Shown here piece after piece: positions 21,065-38,428 of a stretch of 64,000 nucleotides of DNA (positions within the stretch are counted from its first letter, which is position 1; every line of letters begins with the position of its first letter). A program made the position numbers and the translations under genes. The DNA comes from Acidobacteriota bacterium (GTDB lineage Bacteria; Acidobacteriota; UBA4820; DSQY01): positions 1 to 64,000 of the forward strand of contig JBMFSH010000003.1 in the NCBI GenBank assembly GCA_049967655.1, read 5' to 3'. The notes beneath the pieces were generated by a model. That model was not told the DNA's origin, searched no databases, and worked only from the letters and a program-made list of their open reading frames with translations.

Positions 21065-21098
21065 GGGACCTGGCTCCGTGGGCCAAGGATCGGCCGCG

Positions 21099-21608: not shown

Positions 21609-21832
21609 CGTCAGCTCCTTGAACGACGACGGCTCCCTTCTCGCCCCGAATGGTAAGAAGCACGGCCGAGGTCTTCTCATCTCCATCCGGCCCTAGCGAC
21701 GACCGGCGGGAGAGCGAAGGAGGTAGATGACCTGCCGGCAATATCCGTGTTGGACCGGCGCTCCGTCCTTCGCCCTCCGACGCTCCCCTCCGGATCCCCG
21801 AGGGGGCTATCTCCTTTCCCTTCGCCAGGCAG

Positions 21833-22497: not shown

Positions 22498-22536
22498 GCC
22501 GTTCGCTCCTACGGAGCCCGATGGGCCCCACGAAAC

Positions 22537-22566
22537 GAACATATGTTCTTAACTCGCTTTTGTCAA
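22537..22566 (-). promoter_or_regulatory. sigma70 promoter TTGACA-N17-TATGTT with palindrome GAACATATGTTC over the -10
   Basis: Perfect 12-bp palindrome 22537-22548; tgtcaa 22561-22566. Confidence 0.75.
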
Positions 22567-22624
22567 GTCCACGGCCTCCGTTCCAGTACGCGAACTCGTG
22601 GCCGCGGGCCCGTGCGCTCCAAGG

Positions 22625-22942
22625 CTAGCTGCGATCCTCTCCGAAATAGTCGATGTGACAGCCGCACCCGTCCCACATGCGTTCGTAGGTGGCAAGCCGG
22701 CTCCGAACAAGCTGCTCCGCCGCCTCTTTGGAGGGCATCTGCCGGAGGAGGAGCTGCCGCTCGGGCGTCTCCTCCTGAAAGAGAAAGCGCCGGTTCCAGA
22801 CGAGGAGGCGGATGGGGCCGGCCATGCCCGTGTTCTCCTCCATCACTATTTCACCTTCGCTCAGCAGGTGGGCAAGCTCCTGCTCGCCGATCCGCACGAC
22901 GGGACTGCGGTCGAGTTGGGCCAGGAGTGATTCGTCCGTCAC
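22625..22942 (-). CDS. Hypothetical protein with C-terminal WDGCGC motif
   Basis: RBS gaggag plus GTG; 10 nt after the cNMP gene stop. Confidence 0.7.
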   Translation of the reverse strand: MTDESLLAQLDRSPVVRIGEQELAHLLSEGEIVMEENTGMAGPIRLLVWNRRFLFQEETPERQLLLRQMPSKEAAEQLVRSRLATYERMWDGCGCHIDYFGEDRS

Positions 22943-22952
22943 GGCGGTCTCC

Positions 22953-23417
22953 TCAGGAATTGCTCAGGGGAAGGGAGTTCACCACGCTCTGCAGCCGGGT
23001 GATGGCTTCAATGTAACGCCGAAAGTAGACGCTGGAAATGTAGCGCTGAACGGCGTAACCCAAGATCAGATCCTCGTCGAGAATTCTCTTGAGCGTCTCG
23101 GTGCGGATCCGCAGGAGCTTGCTTTTCTGGACGCAGACCGCGTGGAGAGCGTAAGTCGTCCTGTCCAAGCAGAGGCAGGTTCCGAAGACTTCGCCTGGCA
23201 GGACGTCGTCCACGTGAAGGGTAAAACCGGCGGTGGCGCTCCGGAGCGCGATCTGTCCCTCCCTGACGAGGAAGAAGAATTCGGCGGGCTCTCCCGCTTG
23301 GTACACCGGCGTCCCAGCCTCGAGAACCAGCTCCTCGGTGGCGTTGCTGATCTTTTCCACCTGCTTCGGCTGCAGCATCTGGAAAAGGCTATGCCCCCGT
23401 AGTTGCGATCGTTCCAT
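22953..23417 (-). CDS. Stand-alone cyclic-nucleotide-binding (Crp-type) domain protein
   Basis: LFQML..VYQAGEPAEFFFLVREG..PGEVFG; no HTH domain. Confidence 0.8.
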   Translation of the reverse strand: MERSQLRGHSLFQMLQPKQVEKISNATEELVLEAGTPVYQAGEPAEFFFLVREGQIALRSATAGFTLHVDDVLPGEVFGTCLCLDRTTYALHAVCVQKSKLLRIRTETLKRILDEDLILGYAVQRYISSVYFRRYIEAITRLQSVVNSLPLSNS

Positions 23418-23581
23418 GGTTACCTCCTGTCAGAACAATCGTCACTTTCACCTTTGCGCCTTCGGGCTACCACCTGCCCGCTGGACGGATCCGCCGTTCG
23501 AGACCATCACCCCCGGGCGCCGTGAAGCGCTGGCCGATGGCTCACTCCTCCTTTCCGCAGGGCCTGGCAGGGGGCCTATCG

Positions 23582-24025
23582 TCAGTCGTACGCCTCCATG
23601 ACGCTCATGGCCTCATGGAGGAGCGGACCCACCAACTCCTCCATGCGTGCCCGTTCCCAGAAGGGGAGCTTTCGATGAACCTCGAAATACTTCTTGGGGA
23701 CGGGGTGGGTGCCGATCACCACGGGCATCCCGAAGCGGGTTTCGATGTAGGACTTGAAGTCGTTCAGGTAGGGGCATGGTGGATAGCCGACCACGAGGCC
23801 CGTGGCGAGGTGGATCACCTCGGCGCCGTTCCGTTTCATCTCTTCGGGTGCCGATTCCACGTTGCCGCCTGGACAACCCCCACAGGACGAATAACCCACG
23901 ATTTCAACGGACTCGGCCGCCGGGTAGCGCGAAAAGGCCCCCGCGCGCTCGCGCAAGGCGCGAAAGCACTTGCCGCCCCCACAGCTTCGGTAGCGATCGC
24001 AGATGAGAATACCGATCCTTTTCAC
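23582..24025 (-). CDS. CGGC domain protein
   Basis: RIGILICDRYRSCGGGKC..SCGGCPG..YPPCP..VIGTHP; GTGA overlap with thi4. Confidence 0.9.
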   Translation of the reverse strand: MKRIGILICDRYRSCGGGKCFRALRERAGAFSRYPAAESVEIVGYSSCGGCPGGNVESAPEEMKRNGAEVIHLATGLVVGYPPCPYLNDFKSYIETRFGMPVVIGTHPVPKKYFEVHRKLPFWERARMEELVGPLLHEAMSVMEAYD

Positions 24026-24810
24026 GCCCTCTCCTCCTTCTGAGACGCCTCCAGCGCCTGGGTGATCAAGTCGGCGGCCCGCGCGCCCGAGCGGAGCATG
24101 CCCCCGAAGATGGGCCCCATGCGGGGTCCTCCGAGGGCCGAACAGACGCTCATGCCGGCGAGGTAGAGGCCGGGATAAACTTCCCCCGTCCTCTCGACCA
24201 CGAACGCTTCTGCGGCGCGCGCATCCATGGGGCCCTCTCCTTGAGGGCGCCCCGAGAGAGCAAGCAATCCGCGGCGCTGGAGCAGAGCCGCCGCTACGGC
24301 CTCGTGACCCGTGGCGTCCAAAACGGCGCGGGCATCGAGGGTCAGCGGATCCACGGGCAGCCTTTCGCCTACCATGGTTCGGTTCACCACGGCGCCCCTG
24401 ACGGCTCCCCCCTTCACCACGAGATCCTCCAGAAAGGTGAGGTTCAGCAGGAAGGCCCCGGCGCCAACGGCGCGAAAGACCAGCGCGGAGGCCAGCTCGG
24501 CGGCGTGTGAAACGAGGAGCTCCCCTCTCGATGCGGAGTGATAGCGCACCGAAAGCTCTTCCAGCAGGGGGCGCTCCTCGCTCTCCATGACCACCTCGCC
24601 CATCCCCATGCCGCCGCCCCAGAGGCCTCCTCCCGGCGCCAGCCGCTTTTCCAGGATGGCCACCGTGAATCCGCGCTGCGCGAGCTTCCAGGCGCACACG
24701 AGCCCTGACGGCCCGGCGCCGACGATAATCACGTGGCTCTGAAGGCACCGCTCGAACCCCTCAGTGAATCTAGTCAGAATCGTCCTCGATATCTCCGTTT
24801 CGTAGCTCAC
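24022..24810 (-). CDS. thi4: Sulfide-dependent (non-Cys) adenosine diphosphate thiazole synthase
   Basis: IVGAGPSGL, GGGLWGGGM, LPVDP, DATGH, GPRMGPIFGGML.SG. Confidence 0.9.
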   Translation of the reverse strand: MSYETEISRTILTRFTEGFERCLQSHVIIVGAGPSGLVCAWKLAQRGFTVAILEKRLAPGGGLWGGGMGMGEVVMESEERPLLEELSVRYHSASRGELLVSHAAELASALVFRAVGAGAFLLNLTFLEDLVVKGGAVRGAVVNRTMVGERLPVDPLTLDARAVLDATGHEAVAAALLQRRGLLALSGRPQGEGPMDARAAEAFVVERTGEVYPGLYLAGMSVCSALGGPRMGPIFGGMLRSGARAADLITQALEASQKEERA

Positions 24811-24945
24811 GCTCTCGTTCTCCTGAACAGACGGGACACTCCCGCTGAATCGCGTTCGACCGCGGCAGAAATGGTCCCCCCGGGGCAGGCTGGGCGAAAA
24901 TCGGCGCCAGAGGTACCCCAAGCCGACCCTTCAGAGGCTAGTAAT

Positions 24946-24975
24946 GAACATATGTCCTTCTCGATCGCGGGTCAA
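24946..24975 (-). promoter_or_regulatory. sigma70 promoter TTGACC-N17-TATGTT with near-palindrome GAACATATGTCC
   Basis: Same layout as the promoter at 22537-22566. Confidence 0.7.
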
Positions 24976-25063
24976 GCCGAGAGAGGCAGGAAGCGAAACC
25001 CCTGGAGAAAGGAAATTGGGAGAGACCCGTGGCCAGGAAGGTGCCGCGGCTTCCCTCCGCTTC

Positions 25064-26476
25064 TCAAGGTGGCCCCTTGGAGGCTCTCGCCCGCTTGGAG
25101 CGGCCGTCGCCGTCGGGCAGATCGAGGTGCAGGCGCTTCATCTTTCGGTGGAGGGTCGTTTTGTGAATGCCAAGCGCCGCCGCCGCCTGGGTGCGGCTCC
25201 AGCCGCAGCGGGCCAGGGTCTCCTTGAGAATCCGGGCCTCCGCCTGCTCGAAGGAGGGGGGCTGAGGCTCCACGGCCGAAAGGCGCTCGCGGAACCACTC
25301 GGGCAAATCCCGGCCCTCGATGAGCGGCCCGGAACAGAAAAGGCAGGCGTACTCCAGGATGTTCTCCAGCTCTCGAACATTGCCGGGAAAGTCGTAGCGC
25401 ATGAGGAGGGCCAGTGCGTCTGGGGAGAGTCCGTCTATCCGCTTGCCCTTCTTGGCCGCCGTCCGGCGCACGAAGCGCTCGGCGATGAGGGCCGCGTCGG
25501 CCGGGCGGGCGCGCAAGGGCGGCATGGTGATGCGGATGACGTTGATGCGGTAGAAGAGGTCCTCGCGAAAGGAACCCTCTTCGACGAGCTTGGCCAGCTC
25601 CTTGTTGGTGGCCGCCACGATCCGGACGTCCGCCGGCTGGGTGGTGGTTCCACCGAGAGGCTCGTACACCTTCTCGTGCAGCAACCGAAGCATCTTGACC
25701 TGGACGGGGAGGGGCATGTCCCCGATCTCGTCGAGAAAGAGCGTTCCGCGGTCCGCCAGAGCCACGCGCCCGGGCTTGTCTTTCGTGGCACCCGTGAAGG
25801 CTCCCGCCTTGTAGCCGAAGAGCTCCGACTCGAAAAGGGTGTCGGGGAGCGCGCCGCAGTTCACCGTGACGAAGGGGCCCTCCTTCCGCGAGCTCAACAG
25901 GTGTATCGCCCGCGCGGCGAGCCCCTTGCCGGTGCCCGACTCGCCCTCGATGAGCACCGTGCTGTCCGAGGCGGCGATGGTAGGAAGCAGTTCGAGCGTC
26001 CTCTTGAGGGAGGGATCGGTGGTGACGATGGTGGTGAGGGGGTCGAGGGCCTCGACCTGGTGGAGCAGGGCCTGGACCTTGTTGAGGTCCCGGAAGGTTT
26101 CGACGCCGCCCATGATCCTCCCTTGGCCGTCCCTCAGTACGGCCGTGGAGATGGCGGCGGGGATGGGCCTCCCCTGGACATCGCGCAGGGTGACCGCCAA
26201 GTTAAGGACGGGTATGCCCGTTTCCATGGTGTACCGGAGGGGACAGGCGCCCTTGCAGACGTCGGCCCTCAGAACCTCATGGCAGGGGCGGCCTAGGGCC
26301 TGCTCGCGCGGAATACCGATGCTCTCGGAGGCGGCCCGGTTGAAGCAGGTGAGGCGCCACTCCCGGTCCACGGCGAAGACGCCGTCCGCGATGCTGTTGA
26401 GCACGAGCTGAAAACGCTCGGAGGCGCGCTCGGAACCGAGGCAGTCGGCCACCGGCCCCATCGGAGTTTTCGCCAT
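25064..26476 (-). CDS. PAS-domain sigma54-dependent activator (OrpR-like, C-x8-C-x3-C)
   Basis: PAS with [45 protein letters not shown], Fis-type HTH. Confidence 0.92.
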
Positions 26477-26557: not shown

Positions 26558-26606
26558 GTAGCAGCGGCGCTACTCTATGCCTGTAATAGAGTAGCATCTT
26601 CGCACC
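26558..26606. promoter_or_regulatory. Putative enhancer (UAS): GTAGC-N6-GCTAC and GTAGC-N6-GCACC, 33 bp apart
   Basis: Sites at 26558-26573 and 26591-26606; also a perfect IR gctactctat/atagagtagc. Confidence 0.55.
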
Positions 26607-26807
26607 CATATTGCCACCCTTGAAAACAGGCAGCCCCCGGCGAAGGAAGGGGCCGCTCTCTGAGGCCGAAAGGGTTGAGGGCTGGCCTTGGCCGTCTCGA
26701 AACGGCCGCTGCCGCCGTGCGTCCACGCTTCGCCGCTTCCCATGCCGAACCGTGTTTAGCCGCGCGGCACCGGCCCCTTGATTGAGGAACGAGGGGCGCC
26801 ATGGGAC

Positions 26808-26824
26808 TTGGCACTAAAACTGCT
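26808..26824 (+). promoter_or_regulatory. sigma54 (-24/-12) promoter
   Basis: TTGGCACTAAAACTGCT = GG-N10-GC, about 30 nt before the ATG at 26857. Confidence 0.8.
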
Positions 26825-26856
26825 ATGAGAGGACCGCGTGGTGAAGGAGGTGAACC

Positions 26857-27060
26857 ATGGCGAGCGGAGAGAAGAAACGGGAAGAGACGTCCGAACGGGA
26901 GGTTACTCAGGCCCCCCACGTGGCAGCCCGTCCCATGAAGGTCGTCATGGACGAGAAGGGTTGCCCTTGGCTCTGCGACGCCGACGCCAACCCGCACGAG
27001 AACTTGGCATCCCAGGGTTGTTGGCGTTGCAGCGAAGTGGCGTTCACCAGGAATGACTAG
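26857..27060 (+). CDS. Small 4-Cys protein (C-x3-C ... C-x2-C)
   Basis: Strong RBS aaggaggtg; GCPWLCD..QGCWRCSE..FTRND. Confidence 0.75.
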   Translation: MASGEKKREETSEREVTQAPHVAARPMKVVMDEKGCPWLCDADANPHENLASQGCWRCSEVAFTRND

Positions 27061-27068
27061 GCGGGCGA

Positions 27069-27113
27069 GGGCGGAGGAGATGGCGAGGCCGCTCCTCCGC
27101 CCCCCCTTTTTTT
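27069..27113 (+). terminator. Intrinsic terminator-like hairpin between the small Cys gene and tusA
   Basis: gggcggaggag / ctcctccgccc 11-bp stem followed by cccc and T7. Confidence 0.65.
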
Positions 27114-27130
27114 GTCCGAAGGAGACCGTT

Positions 27131-27385
27131 ATGACACCCGAAGAGCTGAAAGCGTTGTCCGTCGCCAAACAGGTCGATGCCCGAGGAACCGCTTGCCCGG
27201 GGCCGCTGCTGGAGGCCAAGCGGGCCATGGCGGCCGTGCCCCTCAAGGGGATTCTCGAAGTGCTCTCGTCCGACGAGGGGACCAACCAGGACATCCCTCT
27301 CTGGTCCAAGAAGGTGGGCCACGAGTACCTCGGCAACATCGAAGAGGCCGGCTACTGGCGCGTCTTCGTCCGGAGAATGAAGTGA
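27131..27385 (+). CDS. tusA: TusA family sulfur carrier
   Basis: VDARGTACPGPLLEAK..LEVLSSD..DIPLW..GH. Confidence 0.92.
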   Translation: MTPEELKALSVAKQVDARGTACPGPLLEAKRAMAAVPLKGILEVLSSDEGTNQDIPLWSKKVGHEYLGNIEEAGYWRVFVRRMK

Positions 27386-27822
27386 TGAACGCTTCGCCGG
27401 GGGGCCACGCTTCGGGCCCCAAGATCCTGGTCTTCTCGACCAACACCATCTCCGACCCCGGGATCGACTTGGCGGGCAGCGCGCACATGCACTACCCCGC
27501 CTCGGCCGTTGTCGTCAGCGTGCCCTGCTCCAGCGGCGTGAAGCCTTCGTGGGTGCTTCACGCCCTGGAGAACGGCTTCGACGGCGTCTTCATCGCCGCC
27601 GACGGCAGTGACTGCGCCTACCTCTCGGACTGCACCGACAGGACGGGAAGGGTGGTTCAGGAGGCCCAGCGGCTGATTCTGGAGAAGGGTCTGGACCCGA
27701 GGCGCCTCAAGATGGCCGCCGTGTGTTCGGTCTGCGCCGAATCTTTTGCCTCTCATATGGAGAAGTTTCACGCCGCGCTGGCTAAGCTCGAACCCGCCGC
27801 GGCAGGAGCCAGCCATGGCTGA
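27385..27822 (+). CDS. mvhD: MvhD/FlpD-like iron-sulfur subunit (atypical Cys pattern)
   Basis: DLAG..YP..VPCSSGV.P..L.ALENGFDGV, GLDPRRL; TGATG coupling to tusA. Confidence 0.85.
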   Translation: MNASPGGHASGPKILVFSTNTISDPGIDLAGSAHMHYPASAVVVSVPCSSGVKPSWVLHALENGFDGVFIAADGSDCAYLSDCTDRTGRVVQEAQRLILEKGLDPRRLKMAAVCSVCAESFASHMEKFHAALAKLEPAAAGASHG

Positions 27823-30577
27823 AACGGCGACGTTGACCCTCGCGCCCGATGTTCCGGCTCTGCGCCCCTCCTACGACGTTCTCGTGGTGGGGGGCGGCAT
27901 CGCCGGCATGGAGTCGGCCCTCACGCTGGGCGACATGGGCTACAAAGTCCTATTGGTCGAAAAAGAGGCAAGCATCGGGGGGAAGATGATCTTGCTGAGC
28001 AAGGTCTTCCCCACCCTCGACTGCGCGAGCTGTATCTCGACCCCCAAAATGGCCTCCACCTCCCACCATCCCAACATCACGACGCTGCTCTACAGCGAGA
28101 TCGAGGCCATCACCAAGGGCGAGGACGGTCTCTTCCGCGTGAAGCTTCGCAAGAAGCCCACCTTCGTGGACTGGGCCGCCTGCACGGGCTGCGGTGAGTG
28201 CGAGATCGTCTGCACGGTGGCCCTGCCCGACGAGTTCAACGCAGACCTGGTGGCCCGCCGGGCCACGCACATCGCCTTTCCCCAGGCCGTCCCGAAGAAG
28301 GCCGTGGTGGACCGCTTCGGCACCTCGCCCTGCTCCTTCACGTGCCCCGCCGGCGTCAAGGCCCACGGGTACGTGTCGCTGGTGCGCGCGGGCAAGTACG
28401 ACGAAGCTTTTCACCTCCACATGGAGGACGCGCCCCTTCCCGGCAGCTTGAGCCGGGCCTGCTACGCGCCGTGCGAGGGGGAGTGCACCCGCGGCACCCT
28501 CGAAGGCACGGTGCCCATCCGCGCCATCAAGCGCTTCATGGTGGACCGGTACTACGCCGCCCACCCCGTCCCCGAATACGGCCCGCCCGAAACCGTGCGC
28601 TCCGAAAAGGTGGCCGTCGTAGGCTCGGGCCCGGCCGGCCTCTCCGCCGCCTATCACCTGGCTCGCAGGGGCTACCGCGTGACCGTCTTCGAGGCCGCTC
28701 CGAAGACGGGCGGCATGCTCCGGTACGCCATCCCGGCCTACCGCCTGCCCAAGGAGGTCGTGGACCGGGACATCCTCAATATCACTGCGCTGGGTGTGGA
28801 TATTCGAACCGAAAGCCCGGTTCGCACCCTTGCTGACCTGAAGGCGCAAGGCTTTGATGCCGTCTTCTTGGCGGCGGGCACGATGCAGGGCTTCAAGCTC
28901 GGCGTTCCAGGCGAAGAGCTGGACGGCGTTACCGACTGCATGGGCTTTCTGAAGCGCGCCAACGGCGGCGAGGCCATGGACCTCAAGGGCAAGACCGTCA
29001 TGGTGGTGGGCGGGGGCAACTCGGCCATCGACCCGGCGCGTATGGCTTTGAGGCTCGGGGCCAAGAAGGTCATCATCCAGTACCGCCGAAGCCGCAAGGA
29101 GATGCCTGCCCACGACTGGGAGATCGAGGCCGCCCTGGAAGAGGGCGTGGAGCTCCAGGTTCTTCACACGCCCAAGCGCTTCATCGGTGAAAGCGGGAAG
29201 CTGAAGGCCGTGGAGAGCCTCACCATGCGCCTCGGCGAACCGGACGCCAGCGGACGCCGCCGCCCCGTTCCCGTCGAAGGCTCGGAAGCCACGACGCCGG
29301 TGGATCTAATGGTTCTCGCCATCGGCCTCAAACCCAGTACCGCCCCCTTTGCGGCGGAAATTGCCCTGAACAAAAACGGCACCGTGAAAGCAGATAAGGA
29401 AACCCTTCAAACGTCGCTTCCCTACGTCTTCTCCGGTGGAGACGCGGTGACCGGCCCTTCGATGATCGTTCAGGCCATCGGCCAGGGCAAACGGGCCGCG
29501 TTTTACGTGGACCGCTTTCTCCGAGGCGAATCGCTGGACGGTGTGCGCTTCGAGGAGCCGCTGCCCGTGGTGGACAAGGGCGAGGTGGTGGCCCGGACGC
29601 CGAATCTGACCCCGCTGCCCGCCGCGCCCCGGCGCGAGCGCCCGGTGGCGGAGCGCCTTGCCTCCATGGCGGAGGTGGAGCTGCCCGTGAGCGAGGAAGA
29701 GGCGCGGAAAGGTGCCTCACGCTGCCTGGACTGCGGCGGCTGCTGCGAGTGCCACGAGTGCGTCCACGCCTGCCCGGCCGGAGCCTTCCACTTCGAGATG
29801 CGGGAGGAAAAAGCCGAGGAGGTGGTACGCTCCGTCATCGTCTCCACCGGTTTCAAGCTCTTCGATGGCAGGAGGAAGCCCCTCTTGGGCTACGGCCGTT
29901 TCCCCAATGTCATTGACGCCATGGAGATGGACCGCCTGCTGGCGCCGACCCGTCCCTACAACACGGTTCTCAGGCCCTCCGACGGAAAGATGCCCGACAA
30001 CATCGCCTACGTGCTCTGCACCGGCTCCCGCGATTGCACGGTGGATCACCGCCTCTGCTCTCGAGTCTGCTGCATGTACTCGCTCAAGCAGGCGCAGCTC
30101 ATCCTGGGCGCCCTGCCGCTCGCCGACGTGACCATCTACTACATGGACATCCGCGCCTTCGGCAAGGGCTACGAGGAGTTCTTCGAGCAGGCCAGGGGAA
30201 TGGGCATTAGCTTCGTGAAGGGGAAGGTGGCCCAGATCGACGAGCAGCCGAACGGGAACCTCGTCGTCACCTACGAAGACATCGAGGGCGGCGGCGGTAA
30301 GAGGCGCATGGAGCACGACCTCGTGGTGCTCTCCGTGGGGCTGCTCCCCAACCGCGAGGCCTTGAGCCTCTTCCCGGGCGGGCTTTTGGAGTCGGACGCC
30401 TACGCTTACGTCCGCGAGGTGGACGAGGACCTCGATCCGGGCAAGACCAGCATCGATGGGGTCTTCGTGGCCGGAACCGCTTCGGCGGCGAGGGACATCC
30501 CCGACACGGTGCTTCACTCGGGCGCCGCCGCGGCCCAGACCGCCGCTTACCTGAAACGCATGGAGAAGGGCTCATGA
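27815..30577 (+). CDS. HdrA-family flavoprotein with an inserted GltD-like NAD(P)H module (HdrL-like)
   Basis: VVGGGIAG, KVFPTLDCASC, CTGCGEC; insert CPAG..SRACYAPCEGEC..GSGPAG..GGGNSA; then CTGSRD..CSRVCC, YMDIRAFGK. Confidence 0.9.
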   Translation: MAETATLTLAPDVPALRPSYDVLVVGGGIAGMESALTLGDMGYKVLLVEKEASIGGKMILLSKVFPTLDCASCISTPKMASTSHHPNITTLLYSEIEAITKGEDGLFRVKLRKKPTFVDWAACTGCGECEIVCTVALPDEFNADLVARRATHIAFPQAVPKKAVVDRFGTSPCSFTCPAGVKAHGYVSLVRAGKYDEAFHLHMEDAPLPGSLSRACYAPCEGECTRGTLEGTVPIRAIKRFMVDRYYAAHPVPEYGPPETVRSEKVAVVGSGPAGLSAAYHLARRGYRVTVFEAAPKTGGMLRYAIPAYRLPKEVVDRDILNITALGVDIRTESPVRTLADLKAQGFDAVFLAAGTMQGFKLGVPGEELDGVTDCMGFLKRANGGEAMDLKGKTVMVVGGGNSAIDPARMALRLGAKKVIIQYRRSRKEMPAHDWEIEAALEEGVELQVLHTPKRFIGESGKLKAVESLTMRLGEPDASGRRRPVPVEGSEATTPVDLMVLAIGLKPSTAPFAAEIALNKNGTVKADKETLQTSLPYVFSGGDAVTGPSMIVQAIGQGKRAAFYVDRFLRGESLDGVRFEEPLPVVDKGEVVARTPNLTPLPAAPRRERPVAERLASMAEVELPVSEEEARKGASRCLDCGGCCECHECVHACPAGAFHFEMREEKAEEVVRSVIVSTGFKLFDGRRKPLLGYGRFPNVIDAMEMDRLLAPTRPYNTVLRPSDGKMPDNIAYVLCTGSRDCTVDHRLCSRVCCMYSLKQAQLILGALPLADVTIYYMDIRAFGKGYEEFFEQARGMGISFVKGKVAQIDEQPNGNLVVTYEDIEGGGGKRRMEHDLVVLSVGLLPNREALSLFPGGLLESDAYAYVREVDEDLDPGKTSIDGVFVAGTASAARDIPDTVLHSGAAAAQTAAYLKRMEKGS

Positions 30578-32316
30578 GCGCTCCCAAGGACTCCGACCGG
30601 CGCATCGGCGTCTTCATCTGCCACTGCGGCGGCAACATCTCGGACTACGTGGACGTAGAAAAAGTGCGGGAGGCGGTGGCTGGCGAGCCCGGTGTGGTCA
30701 CGGCGAAGACCACCATGTTTGCCTGCTCCGACGCCGCCCAGCAGGAGATGATCGAGGCGATCGGCCAGGAGAAGCTCGACGGCATTGTCGTCGCCTCCTG
30801 CTCCCCGAAGCTCCACCTCTTCACCTTCCGCGCCATGGCCCAGCGGGCCGGGCTGAACCCCTACCGCTACATCCAAGCCAACATCCGCGAGCAGTGCTCG
30901 TGGGCCCACCGTGGCCAGGTTCCCGAAGCCACTGAAAAGGCTACCTCCATCGTGCGCGCGGCCATCGCCAAGGCCCGCGCCAGCGCCCCCCTCTCGACGA
31001 TGCGCATCAAGACCCAACCGCGCGTCCTGGTGGTGGGCGCCGGAGTGGCGGGGCTGCGAGCGGCCCTGGCCCTCTCGGACATGGGCCTCACGGTGTACAT
31101 CGTCGAGCGGGAAGAGAGGGCCGGCGGATGGGCCGTCACCTTCGGCAAGACCTTCGCGCGCGATCGGTCCGGCTCGGACATGATCCAGATGCTGCTCCGG
31201 CAGGTGGCCCAGCGGGACAACATCGTGCTCTACACCCGCGCCGAAGTCACGCAAAAGACGGGCAGCGTGGGCGACTTCACGGTCGAACTCTCCATCGCGG
31301 GCCAGGAGAAGGTCACGCTCAACGTGGGAGCCATCGTGGTGGCCACCGGCTTCGAGAGCTACCAGCCGCGCGAGGGGGAATTCGGTTGGGGCCTCCCCGG
31401 CGTGGTGACCCTTCCGCAGTACAAGGTCATGCTGGATGCCGGAGAGGAGCTGCGCCTCGGTGACGGGAAACCCGTCCGTTCGGTGGCCTTCGTCTACTGC
31501 GTTGGCAGCCGGCAGGGTGAAGAGGCCCGGAGCCCGCACCGCTACTGCTCCCGCTTCTGCTGCAGCGCGGCCTGCCACGCGGCCGTCGTGGGGGCCCAAA
31601 GGGCCGTCGGCCTTCACCAGGTCCACCTCTACCGAGATATGCGCACCTACGGCAAGTACGAGACCCTCTACGAAGAGGCCCAGCGGCAAGGTTCGGTCTT
31701 TTTGCGCTGGGATCCCTCCGAGCCGCCCGTGGTCGAGCTGGACGAGGGTCACCTGTTGGTCCGCGTGAAGGACCATCTCCTTGGCGGAGAAGAGCTCGAG
31801 ATCCCCGCGGACCTGGTGGTGCTCGTCACCGGCATGGTCCCGAGGGAAAACGCCACCCTCGTGAACGCCCTCAAGCTGCCCATCGGCGGCGACGGCTTCT
31901 TCAACGAGATCCACCCCAAGCTGAGACCCGTCGAGACCGTGGTGGACGGCGTTTTCATCGCCGGCGCCGCCCAGGGCCCCAAGACCATCGCCGAGAGCGT
32001 GGCCTCTTCGCTCGCCGCGGTCTCCAAGAGCGCCGCCCTTCTTCTCAAGGGTTACGTGGACCTGGAGCCCTTCGTGGCCGAGGTGGACGAGGCTCTCTGC
32101 ACCTGGTGCGGAAAGTGCCTGGAAGCCTGCCCCTACGAGGCCATCGAGAAGGTGGCCGTGGGAGGCAAGGAGGTGGCTCGGGTCATCCCCTCGCTCTGCA
32201 AGGGGTGCGGCGCCTGCGCCGTGCCTTGCGCGGCCAACGCCATCAACGTGAGAGGGTACACCGACGAGCAGGTGCTCGGCATGATCGACGCCCTGCTGAA
32301 GGAGGCGGTGGGATGA
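30574..32316 (+). CDS. hdrA: Heterodisulfide reductase subunit A family (QmoB-like) protein
   Basis: RIGVFICHCGGNI, ASCSP, NIREQCSW, GAGVAG, CVGSR..CSRFCC, HPKLRPVE, C-terminal 2x[4Fe-4S] motifs. Confidence 0.92.
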   Translation: MSAPKDSDRRIGVFICHCGGNISDYVDVEKVREAVAGEPGVVTAKTTMFACSDAAQQEMIEAIGQEKLDGIVVASCSPKLHLFTFRAMAQRAGLNPYRYIQANIREQCSWAHRGQVPEATEKATSIVRAAIAKARASAPLSTMRIKTQPRVLVVGAGVAGLRAALALSDMGLTVYIVEREERAGGWAVTFGKTFARDRSGSDMIQMLLRQVAQRDNIVLYTRAEVTQKTGSVGDFTVELSIAGQEKVTLNVGAIVVATGFESYQPREGEFGWGLPGVVTLPQYKVMLDAGEELRLGDGKPVRSVAFVYCVGSRQGEEARSPHRYCSRFCCSAACHAAVVGAQRAVGLHQVHLYRDMRTYGKYETLYEEAQRQGSVFLRWDPSEPPVVELDEGHLLVRVKDHLLGGEELEIPADLVVLVTGMVPRENATLVNALKLPIGGDGFFNEIHPKLRPVETVVDGVFIAGAAQGPKTIAESVASSLAAVSKSAALLLKGYVDLEPFVAEVDEALCTWCGKCLEACPYEAIEKVAVGGKEVARVIPSLCKGCGACAVPCAANAINVRGYTDEQVLGMIDALLKEAVG

Positions 32317-32552
32317 GCACCTCGGCGCTGCGCGACAAGCGGGAGATCTTCCGTGATGAACTGGTGATGAGAGACAGCATCGCCGCCCTGCTCGCGGATG
32401 GCCCCAAGACGGTTCCCGATCTGGCCCGCGCCCTGGGGTGCCCCGCCTACGAAGTGATGGCCTGGGTGGCCGCCATGCGCCGGTACGGCCGCGTCGAGGA
32501 GCGGGGCAAGGCCGACGAGGAAGGCTACTTCGCTTACGCCCTGAAGGGCTGA
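32313..32552 (+). CDS. Small winged-helix protein
   Basis: IAALLADGPKTVPDLARALG..AMRRYGRVEE..YFAY; ATGA overlap. Confidence 0.75.
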   Translation: MSTSALRDKREIFRDELVMRDSIAALLADGPKTVPDLARALGCPAYEVMAWVAAMRRYGRVEERGKADEEGYFAYALKG

Positions 32553-32581
32553 CGGCTTCGGCCGCGAAAGGAGACGACACC

Positions 32582-33742
32582 GTGGCGACGCGCGTCAATC
32601 TGGACCTGCACGACGAGCTCAAGGCCTTCGGCGCGAAGGACCTCGACCTCTGCTACAACTGCGGCAACTGCACCGCCGTCTGCTCCCTCGCCGACGAGGG
32701 AAGCGCCTTCCCTCGCCGGATCATGCACCTCATCCAGGTGGGAGCGTCGGACCGGCTCAAACAGAGCGTGGACCCCTGGCTCTGCTACTACTGCGGGGAC
32801 TGCTCGGCGCAGTGCCCCCGGGGAGCCAACCCGGGCGAGGCCATGATGGCCGCCCGCCGCTACCTCACCTCCCGCTACGACTGGACGGGGCTCTCCAGGC
32901 GCATCTACCTCTCCAAGGCCTGGGACGTGGCGGCCGTCCTCGTGGTGGCCCTCTTCGTTATCGGCCTCTTCGCCCTCTTCCACGGCCCCGTGGTTCTTAG
33001 CCACGTGGAGCTGAACACCTTCGCCCCGGTCCGAGCCGTGGAGGCGGGCGACCTGTTCATGGCGGGCGTGCTCTCCTTCTTCCTGCTGACCAACGCAGCC
33101 CGTATGGCCTTCTGGATTCTCAAGGAGGATGGGGCGCCGCCTCTCCCGGTGGGAGCCTTCGCGAAAGCCCTCCCCGAGTTCGTGGTGAACTTTGCCACGC
33201 AGAAGCGCTGGCGCCGCTGCGGAACGGCGCAGGGTAAGCCGAAGGAGAATCGGCGCTGGCTCACACACCTGATCCTCGTTTCGGGCTACCTGACCATGCT
33301 CACCCTCATCGTCGTCTTCCTGCGCTGGTTCCAGACCGACGTGGTCCATCCCTTCTATCACCCCCAGCGGCTGCTCGGCTATTACGCCACCGCGGCGCTT
33401 CTGTATGGCACCGTGGCGTTCATGTTGGGACGCTGGAAGAAGCGGGACGAGATCCACAAGTTTTCCGAGGCCACCGACTGGATGTTCCTGGTCCTCCTCT
33501 TCTTGACCACCCTCACGGGGCTGTGCGTGAACGTCTTCCGGCTGGCCGATTGGCCTTTGGCCACGTACCTCATCTACGTCGTGCACCTGGCCGTGGCGGT
33601 GCCCATGCTCGTGGTGGAGGTGCCCTTTGGCAAGTGGTCCCACCTCTTCTACCGGCCCTGGGCGCTCTACCTCGTCAAGGTGAGAGAGATCGCCCAGAGG
33701 GCGGAACGGGTTCGGGCCGAAGGGATTCCCGCCACAGCCTGA
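32582..33742 (+). CDS. QmoC-like membrane subunit (2x[4Fe-4S] plus cytochrome b-like TM domain)
   Basis: CYNCGNCTAVC, PWLCYYCGDCSAQCP, several TM helices with His, PFGKWSHLFYRP. Confidence 0.85.
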   Translation: MATRVNLDLHDELKAFGAKDLDLCYNCGNCTAVCSLADEGSAFPRRIMHLIQVGASDRLKQSVDPWLCYYCGDCSAQCPRGANPGEAMMAARRYLTSRYDWTGLSRRIYLSKAWDVAAVLVVALFVIGLFALFHGPVVLSHVELNTFAPVRAVEAGDLFMAGVLSFFLLTNAARMAFWILKEDGAPPLPVGAFAKALPEFVVNFATQKRWRRCGTAQGKPKENRRWLTHLILVSGYLTMLTLIVVFLRWFQTDVVHPFYHPQRLLGYYATAALLYGTVAFMLGRWKKRDEIHKFSEATDWMFLVLLFLTTLTGLCVNVFRLADWPLATYLIYVVHLAVAVPMLVVEVPFGKWSHLFYRPWALYLVKVREIAQRAERVRAEGIPATA

Positions 33743-33769
33743 GGCTTTCTTATTGGAAAGGACGATCGT

Positions 33770-34156
33770 ATGACCTCGAATGCGGAACAACCCGTCGAAA
33801 AGTTGACCTTCATCGGCCTGCACGGGCCCGACGACCCCGAGATCGCCATCCTGCCCTTCATGCTGGGCGTGGCGGCGCTGGCGATGGAGGTGCAGGTGAG
33901 CATCCTCCTCCAGGGCCCCGCCGTCCTCTTGGCGCACAAGGGCATCGCCGAGCACGTCTTCTCGGGCTGCGAGGGTACCTCGCTGCGCAAGCTCATGGAC
34001 CAGTTCTTCGAGCTCGGCGGCAAGCTCTACATCTGCACGCCCTGCGTCGAATCCCGCAAAATCAGTAAGAACATTCTTATCCAGGGCGCGCAACTGGTGA
34101 AAGCCGGCAAGGTCGTTTCGGACCTGCTGGAGTCCAAGACCGCGCTCACCTTCTGA
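33770..34156 (+). CDS. DsrE family sulfurtransferase-like protein
   Basis: HGPDDPE..LPF..A.A..LLQGPAV..GGKLYICTPC..R. Confidence 0.85.
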   Translation: MTSNAEQPVEKLTFIGLHGPDDPEIAILPFMLGVAALAMEVQVSILLQGPAVLLAHKGIAEHVFSGCEGTSLRKLMDQFFELGGKLYICTPCVESRKISKNILIQGAQLVKAGKVVSDLLESKTALTF

Positions 34157-34188
34157 GGCGCCGGAGACGGCGCTTGAGGAAACAGGCC

Positions 34189-34563
34189 ATGAGTGAAGAG
34201 AAGCCCGAGAAGATCACGATCGTCTCGACCTACGGGGGCGAAGACCCGGAGCGCGCCACCTATCCCTTCTTGACGGGCAACGCGGCCCTGGCCATGGAGG
34301 TGGCCGCCACCATCGTCCTCCAGGGCAACGGCGTCACCGCCGCGACGAAGGGGATCTACGAACACGTCCACGCGCCCGGCCAGGCTCCCCTCAAGCAGCT
34401 CGTGGACCAATTCGTGGAGCTGGGCGGCACCCTGCTGGTGTGCATCCCCTGCATGGAGGCGCGAAGCATCACGAAAGACCATCTGGTGGAGGGCGCCCAG
34501 CCCGTGAAGTCGGCCCGGCTGGTCACGGAAATCCTGGAATCGCGGGGCTCGGTTACTTACTGA
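34189..34563 (+). CDS. DsrE family sulfurtransferase-like protein (tandem paralog)
   Basis: GGEDPERATYPF..LQGNGV..GGTLLVCIPC..R. Confidence 0.85.
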   Translation: MSEEKPEKITIVSTYGGEDPERATYPFLTGNAALAMEVAATIVLQGNGVTAATKGIYEHVHAPGQAPLKQLVDQFVELGGTLLVCIPCMEARSITKDHLVEGAQPVKSARLVTEILESRGSVTY

Positions 34564-34579
34564 GCCCCAAGGAGGCGGC

Positions 34580-35401
34580 ATGTCCGTCATCGCCATATCA
34601 CGGGGTTCCCTGCGGGCCGCAACGCAGCTCGCCCAAGGCCTGGGGAGCCGGCTCGGCAGCAGGGTAGTGGACCGAGAGGAGATCCTCGCCGCGGCCGAAC
34701 GCTACGGCATCGGCGAGACGGGTTTGGAGATGCGGCACATCCTGGCCAAACATCCGCCCGGCTTTTGGGAACGCTACGCCGAGGCCCGCCGCCACTACCT
34801 CGCCTGTTTCAAGGCGGCGCTGCTGGACGCGGTCCTGGAGGGGCCGCTCGTCTATCACGGGAACCTGGCCCACCTCCTCCTGAAGGACGTCCCCTTCGTC
34901 TTGCGCGTCCGGGTCAACGCCCCCATGGAAAACCGGGTGGAGGCCATGATGGCCGAGCAGGGGCTCTCGCGGTACGAGACGACCCGCCGAATCGAGGCCA
35001 TCGACAACGAGCGGAAACGGTGGACGGAGTTCTTATACGACGCGGATATCATGAGTGCCTCCCAGTATGACGTGGTCTTGAACCTGAACCGGGTCAGCGT
35101 CGGCGACGGTATCGAGATGGTCGCGTCGGCAGTCCAGAAGGAGGCCTTTCAGCGCACGCCGGACGCCATCCGCCGGGTGCGGGACCTGCGCCTGGCCACC
35201 GTGGCGGAGGTGCTGCTGATGAGCCATCCGGACACCTACGGGTTGCCCGTCCAGATTTCCGCCGATGCCGAGGGGGGCAGGATAGCGATCGAGCTTTCCG
35301 TCGAAGCGGGCGACAAGCGGTTGATCGAGGGGCAGATCCAGTCGGCGCTTCAAGATCTGGATGGGGTTCGCCATCTCGACGTCTCGGTCACGGTTGGGTA
35401 G
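34580..35401 (+). CDS. Cytidylate kinase-like family protein
   Basis: VIAISRGS..LA..LG, VYHG, LRVRVNAP..R, D.ERKRW, YDVVLN. Confidence 0.85.
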   Translation: MSVIAISRGSLRAATQLAQGLGSRLGSRVVDREEILAAAERYGIGETGLEMRHILAKHPPGFWERYAEARRHYLACFKAALLDAVLEGPLVYHGNLAHLLLKDVPFVLRVRVNAPMENRVEAMMAEQGLSRYETTRRIEAIDNERKRWTEFLYDADIMSASQYDVVLNLNRVSVGDGIEMVASAVQKEAFQRTPDAIRRVRDLRLATVAEVLLMSHPDTYGLPVQISADAEGGRIAIELSVEAGDKRLIEGQIQSALQDLDGVRHLDVSVTVG

Positions 35402-35425
35402 AAGACCGGCGAATAGGAGTCGGCC

Positions 35426-35881
35426 ATGCGGCAGTGGACATCCCTAGAAGAAGTGTTGGACTTCGCCATAGGCGAAGAGGAGAAAGCAGCGGCCTTTTAC
35501 GATGAATTGTCGGCCCTTGCGACGGGCTCCGACCGAAAAGCTATCTTCGCCGCCTTCGCCAACGAGGAAAGAGCCCACAAGGCCCGTCTTTTGGAAGTGA
35601 AGCGAGGCGGGGCCACGCTCGCCCCGCAAAAGCGAGTGGCTGACCTCAAGATCGGCGATTACCTGGTGGAGGTAGAACCCTCGCCGGAGATGGATTACCC
35701 CAATGCGCTCAGGGTAGCCATGGCTAAGGAGAGGGCTGCGTTCCAACTCTACAGCGACCTCGCCGCACAGATCGGCCGTAGAGAGCTTCGGGAGGTCTTT
35801 CAGGGGCTCGCTCAAGAGGAGGCCCAGCACAAGCTCCGCTTCGAATCGGAATACGACCAAGAGATTTTGAAGGAGAACTAG
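35426..35881 (+). CDS. Ferritin-like (rubrerythrin di-iron domain) protein
   Basis: AIGEEEKAAAFY, EERAH, AMAKERAAFQLY, EEAQH. Confidence 0.9.
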   Translation: MRQWTSLEEVLDFAIGEEEKAAAFYDELSALATGSDRKAIFAAFANEERAHKARLLEVKRGGATLAPQKRVADLKIGDYLVEVEPSPEMDYPNALRVAMAKERAAFQLYSDLAAQIGRRELREVFQGLAQEEAQHKLRFESEYDQEILKEN

Positions 35882-35928
35882 CTTGCCCTTCTGGATCATG
35901 CGGGCGCCAACAGCAGAGGGAGATGGTC

Positions 35929-36516
35929 ATGGAATCCACTGAGAGAGCATCCTCGCTCGCGGGCCCGCCGGCCGCGGCGTTGCAGGAGCGCCTGAACGAA
36001 CTGGAAGAGAGAGTGGCATTGCTGGCGGCCAACGCCGCGGAAGACAATCTTTCCATGGTGGTCATGAGCGGGGACCTGGACCACATCCTGGCCGCCTTCG
36101 TGATCGCCACGGGCGCCTCGGCCATGTACGAGAAGGTCACCATGTTTTTCACCTTCTGGTCCATCCAGGCCCTCCGCGATCCGAACAAGAGTTCGCCCCC
36201 CAAAGACCTGGTGGGACGGCTCTTTTCCAAGTTGCTCCCCAAAGGCGCTCCCGGTCTCAAGCTGTCGAGGATGAACATGGGCGGTCTGGGAACGGGAATG
36301 CTCAAGCGGTTGATGAAGAGGAACCATGTGCTGGGGCTGGAGGAACTGCTCCACCGCGCCGCCGACGCCGGAATCCAGATCTTCATCTGCCAGATGAGCA
36401 TGGATCTCATGGGCTTCAAGCTCGAAGAGATGATCGATTACCCGAACCTCAAGCTCGCCGGGGTGGCCACCTTCTTGGCCGAAGCCGGCACGAGCAAGGT
36501 GTCACTCTTCATTTGA
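35929..36516 (+). CDS. DsrE2/DrsH-like family protein
   Basis: SGDLD..AFVIATGA, MFFTFW, LSRMNMGGLG, ICQMSMDLMG, AGVATFL. Confidence 0.9.
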   Translation: MESTERASSLAGPPAAALQERLNELEERVALLAANAAEDNLSMVVMSGDLDHILAAFVIATGASAMYEKVTMFFTFWSIQALRDPNKSSPPKDLVGRLFSKLLPKGAPGLKLSRMNMGGLGTGMLKRLMKRNHVLGLEELLHRAADAGIQIFICQMSMDLMGFKLEEMIDYPNLKLAGVATFLAEAGTSKVSLFI

Positions 36517-36532
36517 CGGGAGGAAATCTCGC

Positions 36533-38428
36533 GTGGAGCGGCTCTTCAGACCCCTGGAGCTGGGTCCCCTCAAGCTCAAGAACCGCTTCGTCCTGGCCCC
36601 TATCCTGGCCGGTTTGGGGGAGGCCGGCGGAGGGGTGACGAGGCGGCAGCAGCGCTTCTACGAAGCCATCGCCGAGGGCGGCGCGGGCCTGCTCATCCTC
36701 GAACCGGTGGCCGTCGCCCCCGGAGGGCGTGAACACCCCAACCAGCTCCTGGCTACCAGCGATGAAAGCATGGAAGGGTTGAGCCGGCTGATACGGGCCA
36801 TTCATGACCGCGGCGCGAAGGCCGCGGTCCAGATTACCCACGCTGGAGCCGCCGCCGATCCGAGAGCCGCGGGCTCTCAGCCCATCGCCCCGTCCGGCTG
36901 CCTCTGTCCCTCTCGGGGCACCTTCGCTGCGGAGATGCGAATCGAGGAGGCCGAGGCGCTCGTGCGGGCCTACGGACGGGCGGCGGCGAAAGCCGCGGCG
37001 GCGGGTGCCGACGCCGTGGAAATCCAGGCGGGGCAGGGCCACCTCGTGGCGCAGTTCCTCTGCCCTCAGACCAACCTCCGGACGGACGCCTACGGCAGCG
37101 ACCGCCTTCTGTTCGTGCGACGAGTGGTTCACGAGGTGCTCGAGGCCACGGAACTCCCGATCATACTGAGGGTATCGTGCAGCCGGCCCGCAGAGGGCGA
37201 CAAGCGGAGAGGGATCCTGAGTCTGGCCGAACTTGCCGGACAGACGGGTCTCGCGGCGCTGGACGTGGCCTTCGGTGACGCGTGCCATTCGCGTCCGTGG
37301 TTTTATCTCCACTCGAGTCTGCCTCGGGAGCCCCAGGAGGCGCTCTTCGCGACGCTCCGGCGCGCTACGAAGTTGCCCCTCCTGGTGGGAGGGCGCATGG
37401 GAAACCGTGCGGCCCTCCAGCGTCTCTTGGAGGAGGACTGGGGAGACGCCGTGACGCTCGCCCGGCCGCTCATTGCCGATCCGAACCTCGTCGAAAAATG
37501 GCGGCGGCACACGGACGGAGAGGTGAGGGAGTGCGGGGGCTGCCTCCAGGGGTGTCTGCGCCACCTGCCCGAGGGGAGGGGACTGCGCTGCACGCTCAAC
37601 CCCTTCCTTGCGGAGGAGCCGCCGCCGCCCGCATCGAGCGCCAAGACCTTTCTCGTGGCGGGAGGTGGCCCGTCCGGTATGGCCGCGGCAGCCCTTCTCG
37701 CCGAGCGCGGCCACCGCGTGACGCTCGCCGATCCGGCTCCGAACCTGGGGGGCATGCTGCGCACTGCCGCCGAATTCAAACCCGCTCTCTTTCACCCCCT
37801 CCTGACACTGGTCCGCCGCCTGGATGCTTCGGGGGTCACCGTACTGCTGGGGCAGAAGGTGGATGAGGCCGCCCTCGCGCGGCTCTCGCCCGAGGTGCTG
37901 ATCTGGGCCGTGGGAGCCGCTCAGGTTCTCCCTCCCATTCCCGGCCTGCGAGGGCAGAAGCGCTTGACGGCCGCGGAGTTCTTTTCCCGCCGCCCTTACC
38001 CGCAGGGGCGCCGTGTGCTCGTGCTAGGAGCCACGAGGCTGGGGCTGGAGGCGGCCGAGAGACTGGCCGACGGCGGATGCCGCGTCACCCTCATCGAGAC
38101 GGGCAGCACGGCCGGGTGGGACATGGAAGGCGTCGGCCGTGAGGTGGCCTTGGCGCGGTTGGCTTCGCTAACGGGAATCACGCTCTTTGCCGGTACGCAG
38201 GTTGAACGGTTCGAAAGAGAGTGGGTTCTCCTCTCGGTGGGTGGGCAACCGGTGCGCGTCCCGCGCTTCGATTGGATCCTGATCGCCGGAGGTTTTCGCG
38301 CCAAGAGCGGCCCACCTCCCGTCCTGCGAAAGGCCGTACGCGCGGTGCACATCCTGGGCGGCCCGCAAGCGGCCACGGACCTTCTGGATGCGATCCACTC
38401 CGCCCAGGCCCTCGCCGCAAGACTCTAA
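36533..38428 (+). CDS. NADH:flavin oxidoreductase (OYE family), paralog of 18451-20349
   Basis: LKNRFVLAP, QITHAG, EIQAGQGHL, CGGCLQGC..CTLNP, GGGPSG. Confidence 0.88.
   Translation: MERLFRPLELGPLKLKNRFVLAPILAGLGEAGGGVTRRQQRFYEAIAEGGAGLLILEPVAVAPGGREHPNQLLATSDESMEGLSRLIRAIHDRGAKAAVQITHAGAAADPRAAGSQPIAPSGCLCPSRGTFAAEMRIEEAEALVRAYGRAAAKAAAAGADAVEIQAGQGHLVAQFLCPQTNLRTDAYGSDRLLFVRRVVHEVLEATELPIILRVSCSRPAEGDKRRGILSLAELAGQTGLAALDVAFGDACHSRPWFYLHSSLPREPQEALFATLRRATKLPLLVGGRMGNRAALQRLLEEDWGDAVTLARPLIADPNLVEKWRRHTDGEVRECGGCLQGCLRHLPEGRGLRCTLNPFLAEEPPPPASSAKTFLVAGGGPSGMAAAALLAERGHRVTLADPAPNLGGMLRTAAEFKPALFHPLLTLVRRLDASGVTVLLGQKVDEAALARLSPEVLIWAVGAAQVLPPIPGLRGQKRLTAAEFFSRRPYPQGRRVLVLGATRLGLEAAERLADGGCRVTLIETGSTAGWDMEGVGREVALARLASLTGITLFAGTQVERFEREWVLLSVGGQPVRVPRFDWILIAGGFRAKSGPPPVLRKAVRAVHILGGPQAATDLLDAIHSAQALAARL

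Follow-up and report, generated by a model that had tools for sequence, protein, structure and literature searches.

A conserved gene cluster joining sulfur carriers to a Qmo-like membrane complex

We analyzed a 64-kb stretch of DNA from an Acidobacteriota bacterium (contig JBMFSH010000003.1; hereafter the window, to whose full length all coordinates refer) that carries an operon in which genes for TusA- and DsrE-type sulfur carriers stand beside genes for an MvhD/HdrA/QmoC-like electron-transfer complex. Thirteen plus-strand genes lie between 26857 and 38428; from tusA through the final gene, which encodes an old yellow enzyme (OYE)-family flavoprotein, the intergenic gaps range from -8 to +41 nucleotides (nt) and ribosome-binding sites are present. 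The run from tusA onward had been predicted from the sequence, and its order and the gene families were as named. The genes from tusA onward are listed here with lengths in amino acids (aa); MvhD* denotes the remodelled MvhD described below, and the two HdrA-like subunits are called HdrA' and HdrA''.

27131..27385, + strand: tusA, sulfur carrier (PF01206); the CPGP cysteine C22 is invariant
27385..27822, + strand: mvhD* (PF02662); MvhD fold with remodelled cysteines, a new CxxC (C114/C117, nt 27724-27735) and Asp76, both invariant
27815..30577, + strand: hdrA' (QmoA-like/HdrL), 920 aa; flavin adenine dinucleotide (FAD) domain, Cys pair C70/C73, K409 equivalent
30574..32316, + strand: hdrA'' (QmoB-like), 580 aa; no fused MvhD, ends after the ferredoxin domain
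32313..32552, + strand: winged-helix (wHTH) protein, 79 aa; core gene, no conserved cysteine
32582..33742, + strand: qmoC-like; 2x[4Fe-4S] domain and membrane domain, His233, His339 and His358 invariant
33770..34156, + strand: dsrE-like sulfur carrier; C89/C92
34189..34563, + strand: second dsrE-like sulfur carrier; C90/C93, sharing 47% identity with the first
34580..35401, + strand: cytidylate-kinase-like (CMK) protein, accessory
35426..35881, + strand: rubrerythrin/ferritin-like protein, local
35923..36516, + strand: dsrE2-like sulfur carrier; C156
36533..38428, + strand: OYE-family flavoprotein, local; a paralogue at 18451-20349 is 44% identical

A query with QmoC matched at least 590 of 600 candidate GTDB genome stretches, and the best 80 were examined. 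Among these 80 loci, hdrA'' and the wHTH gene were each found in 77, hdrA' in 71, mvhD in 68 and tusA in 59; a DsrE-type gene was present in 67 of the 72 loci that are not of the hydrogenase type described below. The core conserved among them consists of tusA-mvhD*-hdrA'-hdrA''-wHTH-qmoC together with a DsrE-type gene, and the predicted tie of the complex to TusA and DsrE is kept across phyla, with hosts that include Acidobacteriota, Chloroflexota, Planctomycetota, Bacteroidota and Myxococcota. The last four genes of the run, originally counted as part of the unit, lie outside it: the CMK-like gene occurred in 4 of the 80 loci, the OYE gene in one and the rubrerythrin-like gene in none, dsrE2 varies in position among relatives, and locus L001 ends after two dsrE genes though 10 kb follow its qmoC. 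The closest locus among those examined, labelled Thermoanaerobaculia, has a QmoC 95% identical to that of the window. An ArsR gene was found in 48 of the 80 loci (of 51 ArsR proteins, 76% retain each of two cysteines, and the match to the BigR model reaches only 60 bits, with a cut-off of 155), and a YeeE/TsuA importer in 18.

Both ends of the operon are modular. The NAD(P)H module predicted within the first HdrA is indeed present in the window, where it splits the inserted ferredoxin of HdrA' (about residues 170-640); it proved optional, occurring in about 11 of 62 GTDB copies and in 41 of 45 full-length metagenome copies that had been picked for likeness to the window. At the other end, 32 metagenome loci extended as far as the wHTH gene, which was followed by QmoC in 15, by an HdrC-like protein with a single-CCG protein in 12, by HdrC with an incomplete CCG frame in one (L125), by neither in two and by the contig end in two. 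An automatic count had given 14 loci with HdrC and CCG; L122, which has no terminal module, and L125 were left out of it because their matches were unrelated opposite-strand genes. A soluble version of the core, in which QmoC gives way to an HdrC-like protein of 103 aa and a protein of 330 aa that carries one complete CCG motif, was seen in L085, L091, L094, L108, L109, L113, L163 and L190. In L122 and L133 the core stops after the wHTH gene, and no terminal module appears in the following kilobases.

Two observations concern single genes of the run. The CMK-like gene stands between dsrE genes in several loci and has six more relatives in the host genome (contigs C7, C18, C46 and C59 are named). 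The winged-helix protein was considered as a DsrD relative and rejected, as it gave no match to the host's DsrD (probability 0.2%).

MvhD* has lost cluster ligands and gained a CxxC motif linked to tusA

The structural model of MvhD* has the MvhD fold (template modeling score 0.75-0.79 to 5odc_D) and Foldseek recovers MvhD with it; a wide structural search returned only generic alpha/beta folds, with no MvhD listed. Compared with 5odc_D, the window protein has lost the equivalents of C13, C16 and C67, has kept C42, C72 and Asp71, and has CSVC in place of SASE, such that the four-cysteine set of the MvhD [2Fe-2S] cluster (C13, C42, C67 and C72, by elimination) is reduced to C42 and C72. Across 30 diverse MvhD* copies, C114 and C117 of the new motif are the only invariant cysteines, and the MvhD-contacting Asp (Asp71 in the structures) is invariant among MvhD* proteins. 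In the model, the CxxC lies where a strand ends and a helix starts. Nine of 61 MvhD* copies have no domain cysteine besides this pair, and two are too few for a [2Fe-2S] cluster.

The motif travels with tusA. We aligned 66 MvhD copies, leaving out L059 (frameshifted) and L020 (other arrangement): 60 have the CxxC, with tusA directly upstream in 57 and a contig edge in the remaining three, and six are canonical, all flanked by MvhA and MvhG and lacking both the CxxC and tusA. When only MvhD* was used as the query, tusA was present in 77 of 80 metagenome loci, the three misses starting within 230 nt of a contig end, and in 20 of 20 cases among genomes of the phylum, where the single canonical match had no tusA; the patterns used in the metagenome scan included the CxxC, so only the link to tusA is independent there. 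Canonical MvhD proteins lack this pair, and at 50% identity the full-length MvhD representatives fall into two clearly separate types, CxxC and canonical. A quick tree placed the CxxC proteins all on one side, with the exception of one long-branch row. At E<=1e-25, 6765 MvhD* homologues were found among 8000 scored, and all 120 that were listed carry the CxxC. MvhD* also occurs in V. souniana JCM 11219, Archaeoglobus neptunius and a Thermoanaerobacterales metagenome-assembled genome; the V. moutnovskia and V. souniana proteins have the same CxxC and are 55% identical to the window's. Selenocysteine at the motif was suspected since many profile matches stopped before it; the tails proved to be frameshifted fragments and the idea was dropped.

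The canonical copies belong to a sister form of the operon. Loci L012-L016 and L021 have the order hdrA''-mvhD-mvhG-mvhA-hdrA'-wHTH-qmoC, without HdrBC, and a tusA or dsrE match was found in none of the eight hydrogenase-type loci. Judged by its genes, this form is a candidate H2:quinone/ferredoxin bifurcating enzyme. Since the MvhD slot carries a hydrogenase there and the dithiol MvhD* with TusA here, we infer that the two-electron flavin side of the complex is tied to carrier-bound sulfur.

The CxxC could also be read as a new set of metal or Fe-S ligands, possibly shared with HdrA'. MvhD* would then still be a wire or a structural cap and the complex a quinone/ferredoxin/NAD(P)H interconverter, with TusA and DsrE serving cluster assembly, regulation or another site such as the CCG subunit. 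The window's subclade keeps five cysteines and most other MvhD* subclades three or four, variants of the CCG protein exist, and solved structures show an unidentified ligand at the Cys pair of HdrA and the Asp of MvhD (PMC12350162, PMC13518236, PMC13580544). We nevertheless consider this reading unlikely: the nine copies with two cysteines only do not fit it, canonical MvhD manages without the pair, and the sister form shares this cluster-rich chassis but has neither TusA nor DsrE, which speaks against a role in maturation.

The two HdrA subunits suggest an asymmetric complex with a Cys-pair relay

HdrA' has the Cys pair after the first FAD motif in 62/62 GTDB and 71/71 metagenome copies, and K409 and an E or D at position 356 in 62/62 each, two positions with a role near the FAD; the four-cysteine cluster site and the inserted ferredoxin are kept as well. 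The NAD(P)H module of the window copy is NfnB/GltD-like, resembles NfnB/SudA-type modules and carries GGGNSA and YRR motifs, which we take to be NADP(H)-preferring. HdrA'' keeps the N-terminal cluster domain and the C-terminal ferredoxin and has lost the Cys pair, the inserted ferredoxin and the equivalents of E356 and K409. It scored 400 bits against 5odc_A and 225 tblastn bits (30% identity) against the host's QmoB, values from different programs that are indicative.

Hdr structures from 2025-2026 describe a mobile arm, made of MvhD together with HdrA's N- and C-terminal domains, that serves the FAD of the partner (PMC12350162, PMC13518236, PMC13580544). The electron step from MvhD to FAD is called unknown in these papers, and the HdrA Cys pair, the unidentified ligand and MvhD Asp71 sit in the gap between the two. 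PMC13580544 and PMC13518236 propose the pair as a relay, and one of these structure papers proposes a disulfide or selenylsulfide relay. By analogy, the split into HdrA' and HdrA'' would fit an asymmetric dimer with one active flavin, that of HdrA', in which HdrA'' and MvhD* would form the mobile arm, and the complex would be expected to carry out flavin bifurcation.

The operon is a second Qmo-like system in a host with canonical sulfate-respiration genes

The original prediction pointed out that aprAB, sat and dsrAB are absent from the window. This is true of the window, yet all are found elsewhere in the host genome (G000, completeness 99.3%): sat is present, and contig C22 carries aprBA, qmoABC and dsrAB, with further open reading frames (ORFs) assigned as dsrD, dsrL, dsrC, dsrT and dsrMKJOP by sequence and gene order. 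Futalosine menaquinone genes and NiFe hydrogenases are present in the host too, along with a match to the heme-copper oxidase family. The predicted lack of HdrB extends beyond the operon, as no TIGR03288 match over the cut-off was found in the whole genome. Between aprA and qmoA of the canonical cluster (G000 C22:21301-22137) lies a 278-aa cysteine-containing ORF.

The window QmoC shares 30% identity with the C22 copy. It scored 208 bits and the C22 copy 408 bits against the QmoC model NF038018 (cut-off 300), and in a tree of 31 QmoC rows the C22 copy forms a very long branch outside the 30 relatives. Because its QmoC is distant, lower-scoring and apart in the tree, we regard the operon as a second Qmo-like system in a sulfate reducer, which bears out the earlier claim that the complex is distinct from canonical Qmo. 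Placement among canonical QmoABC with aprAB elsewhere in the genome had been named as grounds for giving that claim up; aprAB is there, but it has its own adjacent qmoABC on C22, from which the window's QmoC is far removed, and the operon is not beside aprBA.

The idea that the system is undescribed did not hold for its chassis. Type II Qmo, as described in PMC10504309, occurs with or without Apr and Dsr and its function is left open there; it is reported in the sulfate reducers V. moutnovskia and A. degensii, where the spacing of accessions has room for a single gene between qmoB and qmoC, the place taken here by the wHTH gene. In a tree of MvhD proteins, the MvhD* of V. moutnovskia came out beside the subclade of the window (SH-aLRT 87). 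From gene content and order, the operon family is very likely the published type II QmoABC. Thus the chassis is already known by name, and what we did not find described are the TusA link, the CxxC-type MvhD, the hydrogenase-linked sister and the interchangeable ends. No account of TusA, MvhD* and Qmo as one unit came up in a literature search whose scope did not extend to the HdrA-class survey (Appel 2021), Chernyh 2020 and supplementary Figs 11-13 and the Discussion of PMC10504309, which may show the gene set. Related systems, not this unit, are treated in PMC9872577 and, in their accessible parts, in PMC8477390, PMC12142623, PMC4911364, PMC13490349, PMC11005417, PMC11094781, PMC6019823, PMC5861303 and bioRxiv 197269.

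For the type II Qmo of V. moutnovskia and A. degensii, a role as back-up or alternative electron donor to adenosine 5'-phosphosulfate (APS) reductase has been proposed, and the complex of the window could have the same one. PMC10504309 attributes the sulfate use of V. moutnovskia to the acquisition of type II Qmo, the MvhD* of this organism falls in the window's branch, and aprA is present in this host and in 18/21 genomes of its family, of which 8/21 have MvhD*. Such a role, although a serious rival, is nonetheless unlikely given the distribution of the genes. We tested for aprA and dsrA in 50 genomes of unstated completeness, those of 50 of the 80 loci: aprA matched in 11 and was without a match in 39, and in nine of the 11 a second, better-scoring qmoC lies within 8 kb of aprA; dsrA was over the cut-off in nine and matched in 11 in all. 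Among 19 carriers in the phylum, a set that shares at least two genomes with the 50, nine had no aprA match, several of them 97-100% complete, and all three genomes of the same genus have aprA and no MvhD*. The host has a type I qmoABC beside its aprBA, and in the supplement rows seen of PMC10504309 the type II qmo genes are not adjacent to aprAB.

The upstream region carries a candidate sigma54 switch

The following features lie upstream of tusA.

25064..26476, - strand: sigma54 activator, PAS-AAA+-HTH, OrpR-like; divergent to the operon and likely its regulator
26569..26595, no strand: inverted repeat of 10 bp, some 215 nt upstream of the promoter; candidate binding site for the activator
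26809..26824, + strand: sigma54 (-24/-12) promoter site, by pattern match
26857..27060, + strand: 67-aa ORF with four cysteines, the gene nearest the promoter; restricted to the lineage
27069..27113, + strand: GC-rich hairpin with a U7 tail, terminator- or attenuator-like, between the 67-aa ORF and tusA

The PAS domain of the activator contains C65-x-E67...C74-x3-C78, a C-x8-C-x3-C pattern plus an acidic residue at +2, and this spacing matches C52/54/C61/C65 of OrpR, a [4Fe-4S] PAS sensor that is active at low redox potential (PMC8359166). Based on its sequence and divergent position, the OrpR-like activator likely regulates the operon. The inverted repeat is partly kept in L001. The promoter site is the only -24/-12 pattern match in the window and is weak taken alone, as 0.19 matches are expected by chance per window and 18 of 100 shuffles contain one; among 18 loci checked, however, a site stands at the matching position in L001, L166 and L168 and closer to tusA in L175. 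With rpoN also found in the host genome, the predicted promoter stands as a site; a single transcript is less certain, since the 67-aa ORF and the U7 hairpin precede tusA. These two elements, absent from the original prediction, separate the promoter from tusA, and read-through into tusA may therefore be regulated. A second sigma54-like site (26602-26616, - strand) faces the activator gene; because it points that way, divergent sigma54 promoters around one inverted repeat are suggested. A sigma70 promoter scan found nothing, and terminator-like matches were at chance level; the general terminator scan, limited to loops of 8 nt, missed the hairpin at 27069-27113, which has a z of -2.74 and was equalled in stability by 3 of 200 shuffles. 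Its U tail is weaker in L001 and L168.

The 67-aa ORF carries CPWLC and CWRC motifs and possibly encodes a small metal-binding protein. It had no Pfam or NCBIfam match, and an Atlas search gave weak, mixed leads only. Relatives were found in L001, L166, L168, L172 and five metagenome loci; in the host's family the ORF keeps its place upstream of tusA, and in the five metagenome loci it lies near the operon.

Behind the activator, on the minus strand (18451-26476), lie Thi4-family, CGGC-domain, cNMP-binding, DUF134 and methyltransferase genes and a second OYE gene; a CGGC gene is near the operon in 8 of the 80 loci. Further downstream in the window, a 505-aa ORF (44834-46351) that presumably resembles the SpoVR family follows a penicillin-acylase-like ORF (42275-44698).

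Proposed function and direction of sulfur turnover

Together, these features lead us to propose a type II Qmo-like complex, apart from the Apr-linked QmoABC, in which the MvhD* CxxC dithiol would reduce TusA- or DsrE-bound persulfide sulfur to H2S, a reading from sequence that we see as evenly balanced between right and wrong. A low-potential electron would enter from NAD(P)H via the insert, or from ferredoxin in copies without it, and a high-potential electron from menaquinol via QmoC. Both would combine on the HdrA' FAD, leave as a pair through HdrA' C70/C73, and pass by way of the MvhD* CxxC to the TusA persulfide, releasing H2S. The likely role would be that of an electron sink, or of sulfane-sulfur disposal under strongly reducing conditions. 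In a broader form, held more tentatively and perhaps doubtful, the complex would be a widespread, reversible persulfide:quinone/ferredoxin(NAD(P)H) oxidoreductase that couples bifurcation to thiol chemistry through the cluster-less MvhD dithiol and the HdrA Cys pair, and the sulfur on TusA would be turned over without any non-cubane cluster.

The weakest step of this reading is the direction in which sulfur is turned over. With potentials of about -270 mV for S0/HS- and about -75 mV for menaquinone, the reaction lies close to equilibrium and may proceed in either direction. The same wiring could thus operate in reverse, with sulfide or thiol oxidised at MvhD*/TusA, the electron pair bifurcated to menaquinone and to NAD(P)+ or ferredoxin, and sulfane sulfur loaded onto TusA and DsrE for a reversed Dsr pathway or disproportionation. 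The sister form uses the MvhD slot as a hydrogenase input, the host encodes DsrL and DsrAB as well as a heme-copper oxidase, and oxidation with NADP+ and menaquinone is downhill. Oxidation in the sHdr and rDsr systems is also fed by TusA and DsrE, and for such Acidobacteria an unknown step of sulfur entry has been noted. We still judge the reverse direction quite unlikely and favor reduction to H2S, because most hosts have no dsrA match and hence no Dsr route for the product (dsrA occurs in only 9 to 11 of the 50 carrier genomes), because the importers that accompany the operon point to sulfane sulfur as a substrate, and because the activator type responds to low potential.

Several observations weigh against reduction of carrier-bound sulfur by the dithiol. 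With NADPH and menaquinol at standard potentials, S0 reduction is slightly uphill, and no YeeE was found in the host genome. In the window's own subclade, the five cysteines that are kept could hold a metal or a remodelled cluster. Since the CxxC proteins form what is in essence a single clade, their linkage to tusA amounts to one origin kept over time and not to many independent events. The HdrC-like and CCG proteins that replace QmoC in 12 of the 32 informative metagenome loci offer another disulfide-active site. V. moutnovskia, whose type II Qmo is credited with enabling sulfate reduction, has MvhD*. Finally, solved structures put the MvhD cluster 22-25 A from the FAD, with the unidentified ligand held by the Cys pair, and a pure thiol relay is a proposal even for these Hdr structures.

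If this broader, reversible form is correct, fermenters, sulfate reducers and archaea would have in the operon a new module for cytoplasmic sulfur respiration, which would also be natural evidence for a two-electron thiol relay at the MvhD-to-FAD step of Hdr enzymes. In many anaerobes that process elemental sulfur no cytoplasmic enzyme for it is known, and the module is a candidate for one. The idea of a thiol relay can be tested directly on a natural MvhD of this kind, which lacks cluster ligands and has a dithiol. The present data argue against the practice of taking lone qmo genes as markers of sulfate reduction.

Comparison with known systems

Like the type II QmoABC of PMC10504309, the window operon combines QmoC with two HdrA-like subunits that are nearer to HdrA than to type I QmoAB; the available text of that paper makes no mention of TusA, DsrE, a separate CxxC-type MvhD, the wHTH protein or an NAD(P)H insert. 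Type I QmoABC likewise has two flavoproteins, an MvhD-like domain and, in the membrane, an Fe-S/heme subunit with the same three His. In type I, however, the MvhD domain is fused to QmoB and the genes lie beside aprBA, whereas here MvhD is a separate, remodelled upstream gene, aprBA is not adjacent and QmoC falls below the family cut-off; the host's type I QmoB also keeps the E356/K409 equivalents that HdrA'' is without.

The HdrABC-MvhAGD and Elp-Hdr complexes of methanogens (5odc, 8rvu, 7bkb, 9sw4) share the MvhD fold, the HdrA domains, the FAD-side Cys pair and the K409 of HdrA'. The window system differs from them in its split heterodimer with one intact flavin site, its lack of HdrB (two CCG domains) and of a hydrogenase, its incomplete [2Fe-2S] ligands, and the membrane QmoC that replaces HdrBC. 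The sHdr-LbpA system of sulfur oxidisers has TusA, DsrE-type carriers and often ArsR beside an HdrA-like gene, but its set shdrC1B1AHC2B2 (or B3) plus lbpA, as given in PMC11094781, is not in the window, which has no sHdrB1/C1 and no lipoate-binding protein and instead encodes a full-length HdrA pair and membrane QmoC. [quoted passage not shown]

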